From Nitrospirota bacterium (GTDB taxonomy: Bacteria; Nitrospirota; Thermodesulfovibrionia; Thermodesulfovibrionales; UBA9159), in contig CAVOUE010000012.1 of assembly GCA_963699545.1 (NCBI GenBank), positions 64,001 to 128,000 on the forward strand: a stretch of DNA of 64,000 nt. Reading direction: 5' to 3'. Position numbers and translations under genes: made by a program. The notes beneath the pieces were generated by a model, which did no database searches, had not been told where the DNA came from, and saw only the letters and a list, made by a program, of their open reading frames with translations. Shown here piece by piece: positions 59,166 to 64,000 of the stretch; position 1 is the stretch's first letter, and every line of letters starts with the position of its first letter.

Positions 59166-61289
59166 ATGAGCTTCTGGAGCGCGATACAGAGAGATTATAA
59201 GGCCGTTTTCAGGAACGACCCTGCGGCGCGGAACGGAGTGGAGGTGGTCCTTGCCTATCCGGGCTTCCATGCCATCTTCCTCCACAGGATCAACCATGTC
59301 CTCTGGAACCTCGGGATACCGTTCGTCCCCCGGCTTTTCTCCCATATCGCGCGGTTCCTTACGGGTATCGAAATCCATCCTGCAGCGAAGATCGCGCCCG
59401 GTTTTTTCATTGACCACGGCATGGGTGTCGTGATAGGAGAAACCTCAGAGATCGGAGAGGACTGCCTCCTGTATCAGGGGGTTACCCTTGGAGGAACAGG
59501 GAAGGAAAAAGGGAAGCGTCACCCCACCCTCGGCAAGAACGTCGTGGTCGGTACCGGCGCCAAGATCCTGGGCGCGATCACCATCGGGAACTCTGCCAAG
59601 ATAGGGGCTAACGCCGTTGTTCTTGATTCCGTGCCCGACTACGCCATTGTGGTGGGTGTTCCGGGAAAGGTCATCAAGAAGAAGGTTCTCCGGATGATGG
59701 ACGAAGGTGCGGTCGAAAGCCTTTCCCGCGTGCACCTTCCGGACCCTGTGGAAGAAAAGTTCAGGGAAATGGAAAAATATATCGCCGGACTCGAAAAGAG
59801 GATGGAGACACTGGAAGGAAAGGGAGGGAGGATGCGAGTCTACAACACCCTGAAAGGGAACAAGGAAGAACTGATTCCCCTCAGTACGGGCAGGATCGGG
59901 ATGTATGCCTGCGGGGTCACGGTGTATGATCTCTGCCACATCGGTCATGCCCGCAGCGCCATCGTCTTCGACGTGATGCGGAGATACCTTGCTTTCAAAG
60001 GCTTTGAGGTCAAGTATATAAGGAATTTCACCGACATTGACGACAAGATTATCAACAGGGCCAAACAGGAAGGTATTTCCTGGGATGAGGTTGCGAGGAA
60101 ATACACGGCGGAATATTACCTGGATATGGACCGGCTCGGCGTGGGAAGAGCGGATATGGAGCCAAAGGCCACGGAGCATATACCGGAGATTATAAACATC
60201 GTCAAAGGTCTTGTGGAGAAGGGATATGCGTATGCCGTCGATGGCGATGTCTACTTCGAGGTCAGGAAATTCTCAGATTACGGAAAGCTCTCGAAGAGGG
60301 ATATAGAGGATATGCTGGCCGGTGCCCGGGTGGAAGTTGATGAGAGGAAACAGAATCCCATGGACTTTGCCCTCTGGAAGGCATCAAAAGAAGGGGAGCC
60401 GTCGTGGAACAGCCCGTGGGGTCCGGGAAGGCCGGGATGGCATATCGAATGCACTGCCATGTCCATAAAGCATCTCGGTGAAAGCTTCGATATTCACGGA
60501 GGAGGGGCGGATCTGATCTTCCCTCACCATGAGAACGAGCTGGCCCAATCCGAAGCGTATACCGGTAAGCCATTTGTGAGATACTGGATTCACAATGGCT
60601 TCATCACCATCGATAAAGAGAAGATGTCAAAGTCCCTCGGGAATTTCTTTACCATCCGGGAGATCCTGGACACGTTCGACCCCGAAGTGGTGAGGTTCTT
60701 TCTCCTCTCGACACATTACCGGAGCCCTATCGAATTTTCGGACGAGTCCCTGAGGGAGGCGGAACTGTCCATCGACCGGTATTATTCCACGGTGGTGAGG
60801 ATGGAAGATTTCCTGAAAGAAGCGCAGAACAGGGAGAAACAGACCGGGGAAGAACGATCACTGGAGGAGACCCTTGGCGCGTTCATGAACAGATTTCAGG
60901 AAGCGATGGATGACGATTTCAATACCGCCCTTGCCCTTGGTCACCTCTTTGAGCTGATCCGGGAGGTGAACAGGTATCTGGATTCCAAACCTTCAGGCCA
61001 GAATGCGAAGGAGTTCATAGCAAAAGCAAAAGACCTGCTGCGGAAGGCAGGGGGCATTCTCAATATCTTCAACAAGCTGCCCGAAGAATGGAACGACGCC
61101 CTGATGCAGACCAAGAAGATCCCCTACACGAAGCCCGAGATCCTTGACAAGATCAGACAGAGGCAGGAAGCAAGGCAGAAAAAGGACTGGTCAGCTGCGG
61201 ATGCCGTAAGAAAAGAACTGGAGGCACAGGGGGTAATCCTTGAAGACAAAAGGGACGGCACCTCCTGGAAGGTGAAAATCGGCAAGTAG
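59166..61289 (+). CDS. cysS: Serine O-acetyltransferase (CysE) fused in frame to cysteine-tRNA ligase (CysS)
   Basis: N-terminal DPAAR, TGIEIHPAA, IDHGMGV, KRHPT; CysS from M at 59832 with CGVTVY, HIGH, GWHIEC, KMSKS. Confidence 0.92.
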   Translation: MSFWSAIQRDYKAVFRNDPAARNGVEVVLAYPGFHAIFLHRINHVLWNLGIPFVPRLFSHIARFLTGIEIHPAAKIAPGFFIDHGMGVVIGETSEIGEDCLLYQGVTLGGTGKEKGKRHPTLGKNVVVGTGAKILGAITIGNSAKIGANAVVLDSVPDYAIVVGVPGKVIKKKVLRMMDEGAVESLSRVHLPDPVEEKFREMEKYIAGLEKRMETLEGKGGRMRVYNTLKGNKEELIPLSTGRIGMYACGVTVYDLCHIGHARSAIVFDVMRRYLAFKGFEVKYIRNFTDIDDKIINRAKQEGISWDEVARKYTAEYYLDMDRLGVGRADMEPKATEHIPEIINIVKGLVEKGYAYAVDGDVYFEVRKFSDYGKLSKRDIEDMLAGARVEVDERKQNPMDFALWKASKEGEPSWNSPWGPGRPGWHIECTAMSIKHLGESFDIHGGGADLIFPHHENELAQSEAYTGKPFVRYWIHNGFITIDKEKMSKSLGNFFTIREILDTFDPEVVRFFLLSTHYRSPIEFSDESLREAELSIDRYYSTVVRMEDFLKEAQNREKQTGEERSLEETLGAFMNRFQEAMDDDFNTALALGHLFELIREVNRYLDSKPSGQNAKEFIAKAKDLLRKAGGILNIFNKLPEEWNDALMQTKKIPYTKPEILDKIRQRQEARQKKDWSAADAVRKELEAQGVILEDKRDGTSWKVKIGK

Positions 61290-61363: not shown

Positions 61364-61570
61364 TCAAAATACCGTCGAAACAAACTGGTCCATCCTCGTC
61401 GCCGAACCCGTTCGTATCGACTTCCCCACTTCAACTGCCATTATAATTTCCTGCTCATCAATCCCATTTTCGCGGGCCCTGCCCACGTGGTGTTCCACTC
61501 ACCCCTGACAGTTTGAAGCAACAGATGCTCCGACAGCGATCAATGACTTGATTTTTTCATCAAGACCCAT
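61364..61570 (-). CDS. AhpD/carboxymuconolactone-decarboxylase-like selenoprotein (CxxU)
   Basis: MGLDEKIKSLIAVGASVASNCQG-U-VEHHVGRARENGIDEQEIIMAVEVGKSIRTGSATRMDQFVSTVF; TGA 61499-61501; hairpin CGTGGGC-AGG-GCCCGCG 11 nt downstream; RBS GGAGG. Confidence 0.85.
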
Positions 61571-61639
61571 AATGTATTCCTCCTTCCAGGCTTGGGGACA
61601 TTAATGTGCGATCAACCATACCGATAAACTATCGGCACG

Positions 61640-61858
61640 TTACAGTGTTCATGAACCTCCGTATCCAATTGTCACCTTGTCTCCTTCCACGATGACCGGA
61701 ACCCTTGCAGCGCCTTTCGTGTATTCAAGCATCTCCTTCAGTTTTGCCCTGTCCGACAAGACCTCGATATAGACTGCGGTATCGCCAAAGGCCGACCTGG
61801 CCGCTTGACTGAAGGGTCATCCCTTCTTGCCAAAGATTTTTATCACTGTTTCCGTCAT
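61640..61858 (-). CDS. Glutaredoxin-like UXX-star-type selenoprotein, two Sec
   Basis: MTETVIKIFGKKG-U-PFSQAARSAF...RVPVIVEGDKVTIGYGGS-U-TL; TGA 61817-61819 and 61649-61651; hairpins GGCC-AGGTC-GGCC and CCGATA-GTT-TATCGG. Confidence 0.85.
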
Positions 61859-61909
61859 CCCATTACCTCCCTTTCAGTTTATAGCTATGGCGCAAGGCCC
61901 GATACTACG

Positions 61910-62446
61910 TTACTCTATAAGGAGAAGTGCGAAGTAGTTCCATTTGCCGTATGTCTCTTTTTTCGTGTCGACCTCAAAGCCGTTGGCCCGCGCTGTTTTG
62001 AAGACATCTATGCCGCAGGCTTCCATAAGGGGCCTGATCCTGAGTTTTTTCTGGTCACCAGTCTGAGACTCACCCTGAGTCTCCGCCTCACCAGAGGGTC
62101 ACGTTGCCCCTTCGGGCCCTGAAGAGAGAGCAGTCATCGCGAATGCCTTGTAAAAGCCCATCTGGTATGCCTCGCCTTCAAGCCTCACGGCGGTCTCGGT
62201 GAGGGTCTTCCCCTTGGAGCCGTTCATGAGGATCGCTTTGCTGTATTCCTTCATCATCTTTTTTGTGCTGTCCGCATCGGGAGCACAGGGGGGATGATAG
62301 GCGTCCTTACCATGGAATGCACAGCCGTAAACGCACTTCCACCTCACCCACTCCTCTACGACAACAGCACTGGTATTTATGACCCTGGCTTTCTCGGCCC
62401 CAAGCTCAAGGGACCTTTTTAAGAGCTGGTCTGTTTTATCTTCCAT
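61910..62446 (-). CDS. DUF2284-like metal-binding protein with in-frame Sec
   Basis: WVRWKCVYGC...PP..., TGA 62099-62101, then the frame continues to the family motif RPLMEACGIDVFKTAR...LLLIE; hairpin GAGACTCA-GGG-TGAGTCTC; RBS AAGGAGGTG. Confidence 0.82.
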
Positions 62447-62474
62447 TCCATCACCTCCTTCACGTGTGGTGGCT

Positions 62475-63410
62475 TCATTTATGTTTAAGCGTATACTCTC
62501 TGCCGTCCCGGTTACGACCTCGGCAGGATGTCCGTCCTCCTGAAAAATACGGACACCGTTCTTCCCTGCACCCGTGGGGATGCTTGACGCCATGATTGCA
62601 AATTATTGATTGGCTTAGGGGCAGCACGAGTCCGAGGCTTTCCCCAAGGTAATTCACCGCCGCATCAAGGGATGTCCTGACATACGCCTTACAGCAGCTC
62701 GGGCCTGTGAGATCGGTTATCGCCCTCGCAACCCTTGTCACCGCCTCCATGGTGATCCTCTGCTCCTCATCTTTACCGCATTTCGAACCCGTGAGGACTG
62801 CAAAACAGGCCCCCATGGCCGGGGCGATGCCGCAGACGCCGCTCAGGCCGCAATAGCCGCCGTGGGCCTGCTTCCTTGTGCGTTTAAAGACCTCCTTGAT
62901 CTCTTCATCCGTCATGCCCTTCACGCCTTCGTTCTTTATCGCGGCCATAAGTGCCCCGCCGGCAATGTACGCATGCTGGCAGCCGAGCATCGGAAGTCCC
63001 GGGAAACTCATGGCAATTTCGGCTATCTCGAAGGGATTGCTTGATGACGTCGAAAATATAGTATCTTCTATGATCCTCATCGAATCCCTGTTGTGACAGA
63101 GGTCGCAGATATAGTGGCCGCTTAGGCAACTTATATGGCCGTGCTCAAGCTTGCCACAGTATATGCACTTCAGCTCCTCTGCCTTGTCGTGATACGTCAG
63201 GGGCGTGCCGCAGACCATACAGTGCTCGGTTGCTTTAGTCTGAACTTCTACGACAGGTTTATCCCCCTGGTTCCCGCTTTCGCAAAGCCCTTCTATGGTC
63301 CCGGTTAACGACTTTGAAGCGCTGTTTTGATGCCCACCAGCATCATCGCCCGGCTCTCAATCTCAGCTGCCATCTTCTCTCAATTCTTTCCTCTCTTTTT
63401 CCTCTGCCAT
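62475..63410 (-). CDS. DUF5714-like Cys-rich protein with probable N-terminal UxU motif
   Basis: RBS AAGGAGG, MAEEKERKELREDGS-U-D-U-EPG... in frame with CMVCG, CIYCG, HYICDLCH, GCQH, YCGLSGVCG, GPSCCK; TGA 63363-63365 and 63357-63359; hairpin TGATGCT-GGTG-GGCATCA. Confidence 0.75.
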
Positions 63411-63422
63411 TGTTTCCTCCTT

Positions 63423-63716
63423 TCATCGGAACAAGAGGGTGTATCCCACCAGCCCCAGGCTCAAGGCAGTCGTCACGTAGAGCATTCTCTTTCCCCACGG
63501 GTCGGCAGATCCCCTCTTCCGGAAAAATGTCCTGTGGTACGCCATTCCCAAAAAAGCAAGGGTTACGAGCACGAAAATCCATCGGTAGCTCACCATCCAG
63601 ACGCCTAGGGTCAGGCTTCCCAGGCCCAAACTGGCCAGGATCAGGGGAAGCTGTCAGGCGAAAAAAGCTACCGCTGAAGAAATGACAGCACCGCTCTTAA
63701 AAAATGACGCCTTCAT
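63423..63716 (-). CDS. MerT-like 3-TM transporter with Sec in TM1
   Basis: MKASFFKSGAVISSAVAFFA-U-QLPLILASLGLG...YRWIFVLVTLAFLGMAYHRTF...; TGA 63654-63656; stems CTTCCC/GGGAAG and GGCC-AGTTTG-GGCC. Confidence 0.75.
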
Positions 63717-63757
63717 GAAATTCTCCCTTCACCACTTGAAACAATTACTCGAATCTC

Positions 63758-64000
63758 TTATGTGCGCTTTCGGGTTTCTTTTCTCGGTCCCCACGCCTGC
63801 ATCTTTATCTTTCCCTCCCGAGCGAGTTTGCCAAGGATAAAGAGGACGCTCTCACGATTCAGCTTAAAGTATGAAGCTACCTCGTCAGGGTCCACTTTTT
63901 CTCTGTCGGTGAGAAATACGACTATCTCATTCTCGATCTCTCTCATCCAGTCATTAAAGAGTCCCCGCAGCTCCGGGGTCGAGTACGTGGCCAGCTCATA
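63758..64000 (-). CDS. Hypothetical protein with winged-helix-like C-terminus (5' end off window)
   Basis: YELATYSTPELRGLFNDWMREIENE...VLFILGKLAREGKI, open to the window edge. Confidence 0.7.
   Translation of the reverse strand, partial: YELATYSTPELRGLFNDWMREIENEIVVFLTDREKVDPDEVASYFKLNRESVLFILGKLAREGKIKMQAWGPRKETRKRT

Follow-up and report, generated by a model that had tools for sequence, protein, structure and literature searches.

The 64,000-nucleotide (nt) stretch analysed here, hereafter the window, covers positions 64,001 to 128,000 of contig CAVOUE010000012.1 (C12) in the assembly of a Nitrospirota bacterium (GCA_963699545.1; genome G000; 13 contigs, 3.04 Mb, 87% complete). Close to its end lie five minus-strand reading frames, g1 to g5 (positions 61364-63716), that contain in-frame TGA codons. 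They very probably make up the downstream end of a single operon in a Nitrospirota metagenome-assembled genome (MAG), encoding, in order, a regulator, a TsoA-like protein, a MerT-like membrane protein, MbdU, a UXX-star protein and an AhpD-like protein, in which UGA would be read as selenocysteine (Sec) with the aid of selenocysteine insertion sequence (SECIS) elements, and in which the apparent split of MbdU into g2 and g3 would be an assembly error.

Seven in-frame TGAs lie in the window frames, and the TsoA-like gene, whose Sec codon stands beyond the window end, adds one of its own, so that the operon holds eight Sec codons in about 3.3 kb. The locus is a clear case of selenoproteins missed or truncated by standard gene callers, and also a case of assembly indels mimicking a gene split. 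An earlier reading of the window from its letters alone (the sequence-only reading) had proposed that the operon continues off the window, as it does: the TsoA-like gene stands upstream of g1, preceded by a gene for an ArsR/SmtB-type (TsoR-like) regulator. A convergent gene downstream of g5 closes the operon. A promoter and terminator scan returned sites no more numerous than in shuffled sequences; one TTGACA-18-TACACT site just upstream of arsR offers a hint.

The protein families involved are already catalogued, and the locus opens no new category. A 2026 review (PMC13188914) lists predicted selenoproteins that include MbdU (motif CU, two Sec), ArsM/DUF2284, ArsM/AhpD, TsoA/B/C/X/Y, the UXX-star families, CMD-like proteins and a putative mercuric transport protein, and credits most of these families to Haft and Tolstoy 2025. 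A full-text literature search for TsoA, MbdU, DUF2284 or DUF5714 together with selenoprotein returned only this review. The sequence-only reading had not recognised the gene combination as a described one; at the family level this claim fails, because models for MbdU, UXX-star family 1, TsoA and TsoR exist in NCBIfam and are credited in a table of the review to Haft and Tolstoy 2025. What is new here, as judged from sequence, is small: the U-D-U, three-Sec tail of MbdU, a MerT-like selenoprotein that falls below all MerT models, and TsoA-like and TsoR-like genes that fall below the equivalog cut-offs. The catalogued set thereby gains a three-Sec (U-x-U) MbdU and a small MerT-like selenoprotein.

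Selenocysteine decoding

The positions that the sequence-only reading gave for seven in-frame TGAs all match (Table 1), as do the purine-rich, Shine-Dalgarno-like stretches ahead of each of the five frames. It was equally right that the open reading frame (ORF) track truncates three genes and misses two: the translation table 11 list shortens g1, g2 and g3, and holds only pieces of 36 and 44 amino acids (aa) for g4 and g5.

Table 1. Coordinates of the operon features and of broken genes elsewhere in the assembly (window positions unless another contig or locus is named)
Feature	Position	Strand	Remarks
TsoA-like gene, C-terminal part	63758..64000	(-)	whole gene in locus L003, 3265..2759, ~168 aa
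TsoA-like Sec codon	L003 3079-3077, off window		motif E-U-I-K-E-C
MerT-like membrane selenoprotein gene (g1)	63423..63716	(-)	97 aa; Sec at residue 21 (U21)
MerT-like Sec codon	63654..63656	(-)	TGA; placed by aligned homologs
SECIS-like hairpin, MerT-like gene	63618..63640	(-)	-11.7 kcal/mol
MbdU N-terminal half as assembled (g2)	62475..63410	(-)	311 aa; Sec tail, Cys-rich zinc-ribbon-like motifs, DUF5714
MbdU N-terminal Sec codons U16 and U18 (U-D-U)	63357..63365	(-)	TGAs at 63365-63363 and 63359-63357; placed by alignment to family motif
Shared SECIS-like hairpin, U16 and U18	63328..63345	(-)	loop GGUG; 17 nt after U16, 11 nt after U18
Extra G in GG run	62536..62537	(-)	shifts frame, splits MbdU into g2 and g3
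MbdU linker and C-terminal half (DUF2284)	61910..62593	(-)	frame open from 62593
g3, as given by the sequence-only reading	61910..62446	(-)	178 aa from ATG at 62446; U116
DUF2284-loop Sec codon	62099..62101	(-)	TGA; motif G-A-T-U-P-S-G-E
Predicted SECIS hairpin, DUF2284 site	62065..62083	(-)	7-bp stem, 5-nt loop, 15 nt after TGA
UXX-star family 1 glutaredoxin-like selenoprotein gene (g4)	61640..61858	(-)	72 aa; Sec 14 and 70 (TGAs at 61819-61817 and 61651-61649); true stop TAA 61642-61640
SECIS-like hairpin for U14	61784..61808	(-)	-13.4 kcal/mol
SECIS-like hairpin for U70	61617..61639	(-)	just past TAA stop; 10-bp stem, GUU loop, -12.5 kcal/mol
AhpD/CMD-domain selenoprotein gene (g5)	61364..61570	(-)	68 aa; Sec at residue 24 (TGA at 61501-61499)
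SECIS-like hairpin, AhpD-like gene	61472..61486	(-)	-13.8 kcal/mol
Broken rpoB	G000 C12:38396-42287
Broken tuf copies	G000 C12:45999-47200; C11:13355-14557
Broken selB	G000 C3:318143-319991

TGA stands at the same codon across assemblies, in 17 of 17 aligned homologs of the TsoA-like gene, 5 of 5 of the MerT-like gene (motif F-C-U-Q), 69 of 74 at the DUF2284-loop site of MbdU, 8 of 8 at U14 and 7 of 7 at U70 of the UXX-star gene, and 7 of 7 of the AhpD-like gene, all in related loci that were found with the window's own proteins and are close kin, not independent cases. At the DUF2284 site the remaining homologs, which are distant relatives, read Cys (three) or Ile (two). These Cys codons, the TGT that replaces the U16 codon of MbdU in a near relative (below), and the motifs C-x-x-U and U-P-F-S in the CxxC place of the AhpD-like and glutaredoxin-like proteins bear out the expectation that Sec occupies Cys-equivalent positions.

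Folding likewise confirmed the hairpins, with G in the loop, that had been proposed to follow each TGA after 11-17 nt; that of the TsoA-like gene has a GGGG loop. Their energies range from -10.4 to -15.6 kcal/mol against a background of -8.0 +/- 3.5 kcal/mol (1500 random in-frame positions in long ORFs). Singly they are unremarkable, since 0.02 to 0.24 of the background positions fold as well; jointly, about 0.0005 of 20,000 resamplings matched the mean of the seven independent sites. The DUF2284 hairpin also covaries: the 7-bp stem, which starts 15 nt past the TGA, is kept in 38 homologous 60-mers, 91.7% of the cells are paired (15-47% with the partner slid), six of the seven pairs show compensatory changes, and none of 500 shuffles reached the covariation score, in a region that is also protein-coding and hence constrained.

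Of the four components that the sequence-only reading had asked for, three were identified in the genome: selA (607 bits), selB (302 bits, with its C-terminal part in addition) and a tRNA-Sec whose anticodon is TCA; the fourth, selD, was not found. Taken together, this sequence evidence allows the in-frame TGAs to be assigned with confidence to selenocysteine, as that reading had claimed. An error-prone assembly and the missing selD would suit a view of the TGAs as plain stop codons, base-call errors or marks of pseudogenes, and of the genes as short or dead; we regard this as highly improbable given the conserved codon, the frames that remain protein-like beyond each TGA and agree with curated selenoprotein models, the covarying hairpin at the g3 site and the presence of selA, selB and tRNA-Sec. 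Still more improbable is a genome-wide code in which TGA stands for one of the standard amino acids (Trp or Gly), as in NCBI tables 4 or 25. The only support for such a code is that the frames stay open under it; TGA terminates g1, g2 (as assembled) and g5, the residue that homologs have at these sites is Cys and neither Trp nor Gly, and the tRNA-Sec with its TCA anticodon is accompanied by selA and selB.

MbdU: probably one gene split by an extra base

The sequence-only reading counted five genes, a number that does not hold if g2 and g3 are, as is very likely, the two halves of one MbdU gene. On the MbdU model NF045648, g2 scores 409.8 bits over positions 5-270 and g3 333.7 bits over positions 292-468 of 468; the Pfam domains are DUF5714 in g2 (160 bits) and DUF2284 in g3 (95.5 bits). 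Full-length MbdU homologs have the same two domains, in this order, joined by a variable linker. The last ~19 codons of g2 before its TGA stop (62477-62475) are an out-of-frame read-on, and the frame of g3 is open for 147 nt upstream of its own ATG, overlapping the end of g2; in that frame, the 32 residues before the ATG equal in length the linker of a fused homolog (locus L015).

The responsible base is the extra G at 62536-62537. Four public metagenome runs, each from a different study, supplied contigs that align to the window with a likeness of >=85%; none of these runs is the source sample (at most 0.38 of sampled words occurred in any run), and no RNA run was among those listed as containing the sequence. 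The base at 62536 is absent from the contigs of all four. It is also missing from locus L045, a 4.25-kb metagenome contig that is 96.3% identical to the window over 2077 nt and in which the missing G at 62537 is the only indel. There MbdU is a single 499-aa frame (751.6 bits, cut-off 600) that reads C-P-Y-F-S-G-D-G-H-P... at the junction, and the window frame, once freed of the extra G, reads C-P-Y-F-S-G-D-G-H-P... directly into g3. Where related loci span the junction, both halves lie in a single frame, read through TGA, in 22 of the 26 from metagenomes and 19 of the 20 from genomes; the five others (L087, L090, L091, L095 and L155) are distant relatives. The same assembly breaks other frames: rpoB and selB lie in two frames each, and both tuf copies in pieces of which none passes the cut-off. 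This suggests that indel errors are frequent in it.

An assembly error is, in our view, the very likely origin of the extra G, because near relatives lack the base and because the same assembly breaks rpoB, tuf and selB; the rival is a private frameshift or a true fission. A real split in this strain, by recent fission with the DUF2284 half translated from its own ATG at 62446, appears quite unlikely. It would draw on the strong Shine-Dalgarno sequence, GAAGGAGGTGAT, that precedes this ATG, on the Met found at this place in many fused homologs, and on the five of 53 junction-covering loci, all distant relatives, that have halves in different frames; it is opposed by the absence of the base in all five near relatives examined, by the upstream codons that still read as linker, and by the broken frames of essential genes. 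Given such breaks, frameshifts and split genes anywhere in this genome call for checking at read level.

Both Sec sites that mark the MbdU family, in the N-terminal tail (g2) and in the G-x-x-U-P-S-G loop of DUF2284 (g3), are present here, the latter with its predicted SECIS hairpin, and the domain order is that of NF045648. The window version differs from the family in lying in two frames as assembled, and in having a U-D-U tail, and thus three Sec, where the family has C-U (S-U in two loci). U18 falls in the Sec column of the family; BLAST had shifted the C-U pair by one residue in some rows, and the motif was taken from the sequences and a MAFFT alignment. The U16 codon is TGT (Cys) in the 96%-identical L045 (C-D-U) and TGA in L146 (U-D-U), a MAG locus 80-87% identical to the window with a fused, three-Sec MbdU; by sequence, U16 thus forms a direct Cys/Sec pair. 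One predicted hairpin serves both U16 and U18, whose UGA codons are 6 nt apart. It is conceivable, if doubtful, that the U16 difference between 96%-identical strains records a strain-level switch from Cys to Sec under a pre-existing SECIS.

In two other loci (L100 6346-6642 and L079 3744-3887), the Sec loop G-A-T-U-P-S-G-E occurs two or three times in tandem, with hairpin-like sequence downstream of each copy; L079 also has an ArsM-like ORF.

The small selenoproteins and the upstream genes

The protein encoded by g1 aligns from residue 9 to 95 with positions 8-94 of the 97-position profile of merT_RC607 (NF033560; 33.5 bits, E 4e-8), far below the cut-off of 130; it also falls short of Pfam MerT PF02411 (17.8 against 32.9) and NF010314 (17.5 against 150). 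As no model admits it to MerT, we file it only as MerT-like. It resembles the MerT of mer operons in being collinear with the RC607-type profile along its full length and, by our reading of the translation, in having three hydrophobic segments, consistent with a three-span topology, with the reactive residue, here Sec, in the first. Canonical MerT carries a vicinal Cys pair at that first-span place. The differences are the low scores, the Sec at the place where its relatives read C-U, and the absence of merA, merP or merR near g1.

The product of g4 is a member of UXX-star family 1 (NF041114, 91.5 bits, cut-off 72; Pfam Glutaredoxin, 31.8 against 22.9), with the motif U-P-F-S in the CxxC place and U-T-L-stop at the C-terminus. 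It shares with that family a Sec three residues before the stop and a SECIS-like element beyond the stop codon, and we saw no difference from it. The product of g5 belongs to the AhpD/CMD proteins (TIGR00778, 32.4 against 27.8; Pfam CMD PF02627, 48.5 against 23) and has a C-x-x-U type motif, C-Q-G-U-V-E-H-H.

Upstream, the TsoA-like protein matches NF045695 over the whole profile (1-144 of 144) with 99.2 bits, below the cut-off of 170. Its E-U-I-K-E-C differs from the L-U-L-A-x-C of TsoA, with the U-to-C spacing kept, and on these two grounds we file the gene as TsoA-like, not TsoA. The regulator exceeds the cut-off of the ArsR/SmtB model NF033788 (72.8 bits, cut-off 55); its best equivalog is TsoR (NF045707), whose cut-off of 115 it does not reach with 89.1 bits. 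As in the tso genes, an ArsR-type regulator is followed by a small U-x-x-x-C protein with a winged-helix-like C-terminus.

In L045, two further genes (897-1611) separate arsR from the TsoA-like gene: one for a membrane protein of 81 aa, the other for a ResA/TlpA-like selenoprotein (motif W-U-P-E-C). Neither occurs in the window, where ArsR instead ends in a long C-terminal tail; L146 retains a remnant in fused form.

Observations that weigh against the proposed operon

Several observations count against the reading of this locus as a Sec operon with MbdU. One concerns selD, which was not found in the 87%-complete assembly, where its best match (66.9 bits) is a ThiL-like protein. Of the 21 genomes in the relatives search, 19 have a selD that exceeds the cut-off, always with an in-frame TGA, and the two same-genus genomes are among them; incomplete assembly may thus explain its absence here. 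Each MbdU half alone scores below the NF045648 cut-off of 600, and the Cys that stands beside the N-terminal Sec in the family is Asp in the window. The TsoA-like, TsoR-like and MerT-like proteins all remain under their equivalog cut-offs.

In L045 and in two of the metagenome runs (X1 and X5), 40 nt take the place of the segment corresponding to window 63519-63784, which holds the preceding spacer and the first half of the MerT-like gene with its Sec codon, so that a C-terminal remnant of the gene is left; with half of it deleted in these near relatives, the MerT-like gene is not essential to the system. Two genomes of the same genus have no MbdU, and the operon is therefore accessory.

Finally, structure prediction gave no help on mechanism. 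The AlphaFold2 model of the L045 MbdU is of middling confidence (mean predicted local distance difference test score, pLDDT, 62.3; predicted template modelling score, pTM, 0.47), and no fold match was found: a Foldseek search of the model against the PDB gave nothing at E <= 0.001 (best E 0.61), and a profile search of PDB sequences reached only E 0.56. The pLDDT values below 50 in the Sec tail, linker and Sec loop are consistent with flexible arms.

Possible function

We think it probable that the operon handles a thiophilic metal or metalloid, because it combines an ArsR/SmtB-type regulator and a MerT-like protein that would carry Sec in its first span with modules known from ArsM fusions. 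The sequence-only reading had likewise proposed a soft-metal or metalloid system; this remains plausible on the same three grounds, as something that we infer. The ligand may specifically be arsenic, a more tentative proposal: arsenic leads the candidates because arsenite methyltransferases are found fused to DUF2284-Sec and to AhpD-Sec modules, and mercury, selenium and tellurium are the other candidates.

An ArsM-like ORF lies beside the DUF2284 match in 32 of 113 loci, and in 25 of these 32 the two form one read-through frame; one such protein (L074) scores 786.7 bits on NF041536, the ArsM/DUF2284 selenoprotein model (cut-off 575). NCBIfam also models a fusion of ArsM with AhpD-Sec (NF041537) and a methyltransferase with a U-x-P-K-stop tail. 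The window shares the DUF2284-Sec domain with the ArsM/DUF2284 model (g3 scores 307.7 bits on NF041536) and the AhpD C-x-x-U module with NF041537 (g5, 30.6 bits). It differs in that the operon has no methyltransferase domain and DUF5714 stands where ArsM does. By sequence comparison, then, the operon gathers three Sec modules whose counterparts are fused to arsenite methyltransferase-type enzymes, with DUF5714 in the methyltransferase's place. This recurring fusion of Sec modules with arsenite methyltransferase is a testable lead toward arsenic chemistry in Nitrospirota of sediment and groundwater.

In the mechanism that we propose, the ArsR-type repressor would free the operon in response to a thiophilic metal or metalloid, and the MerT-like protein would pass the ion through the membrane on its first-span Sec. 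MbdU would then take the ion on its flexible U-D-U Sec tail and the Sec loop of DUF2284, and the two small redox proteins (U-P-F-S...U-x-x-stop and C-x-x-U) would keep the selenols reduced or resolve selenenyl-sulfide bonds.

A thiol/selenol redox or cofactor-maturation role (for instance in peroxide or disulfide stress, or in Fe-S or corrinoid handling), with the operon being no carrier or detoxifier of metal(loid)s, we regard as rather unlikely. The Grx and AhpD folds of two members, the many invariant Cys of MbdU, which could hold Fe-S clusters or zinc, and the ResA/TlpA-like selenoprotein of the L045 version all fit such a role. The ArsR/SmtB-type regulator, the MerT-like membrane protein and the recurrent fusion of DUF2284-Sec and AhpD-Sec modules to arsenite methyltransferase do not, and it is these that lead us to prefer the handling of a metal or metalloid. 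DUF5714, standing where ArsM does in the fusions, might be an unrecognised catalytic or substrate-binding partner, so that the operon would transform, and not merely bind, a metalloid or organometal (As, Hg, Se, Te) in anaerobic Nitrospirota in a way not yet described; this idea we consider unlikely.

Elsewhere in the genome (G000 C5:391352-392125 and C3:680437-680931) are two arsenite-methyltransferase-like frames with in-frame TGA codons. Their methyltransferase part scores 247.9 and 150.8 bits on NF041536, and they are likely to be further selenoproteins.

Distribution and neighbourhood

Relatives of the locus come mostly from Nitrospirota MAGs, and some from Desulfobacterota and Desulfosporosinus. 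Full-length MbdU exceeds the cut-off in 7 of 401 sampled genomes of the phylum; many more of them have a protein with DUF5714 alone, in which an N-terminal TGA may be present or absent. Among fused-MbdU loci with enough flanking sequence, the upstream side holds a TsoA-like gene in 20 of 30, ArsR in 15 of 21 and a MerT-like gene in 7 of 30, and the downstream side a UXX-star or AhpD-like gene in 11 of 30. The full gene order of the window recurs in L049, and without the MerT-like gene in L056 and L146.

A transporter encoded between MbdU and UXX-star in L056 was considered as an arsenite pump and rejected: it belongs to the SBF/BASS superfamily, and its score of 59.6 bits on ACR3 falls far short of the cut-off (282.8). 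In L126 (5616-9033), from a Nitrospiraceae MAG, the roughly 3.5 kb downstream of MbdU and UXX-star contain selD (321.8 bits), another ArsR-like gene and a gene for a rhodanese-like protein; the same stretch encodes a membrane protein that we took for TauE-like by its sequence, and whose only family match is a weak one to a hypothetical-protein model.

On the plus strand of the window, a 707-aa ORF (59166-61289) combines, as assembled, CysE (serine O-acetyltransferase; TIGR01172, 237 bits, residues 7-168) with CysS (cysteine-tRNA ligase; TIGR00435, 587 bits, residues 223-703).

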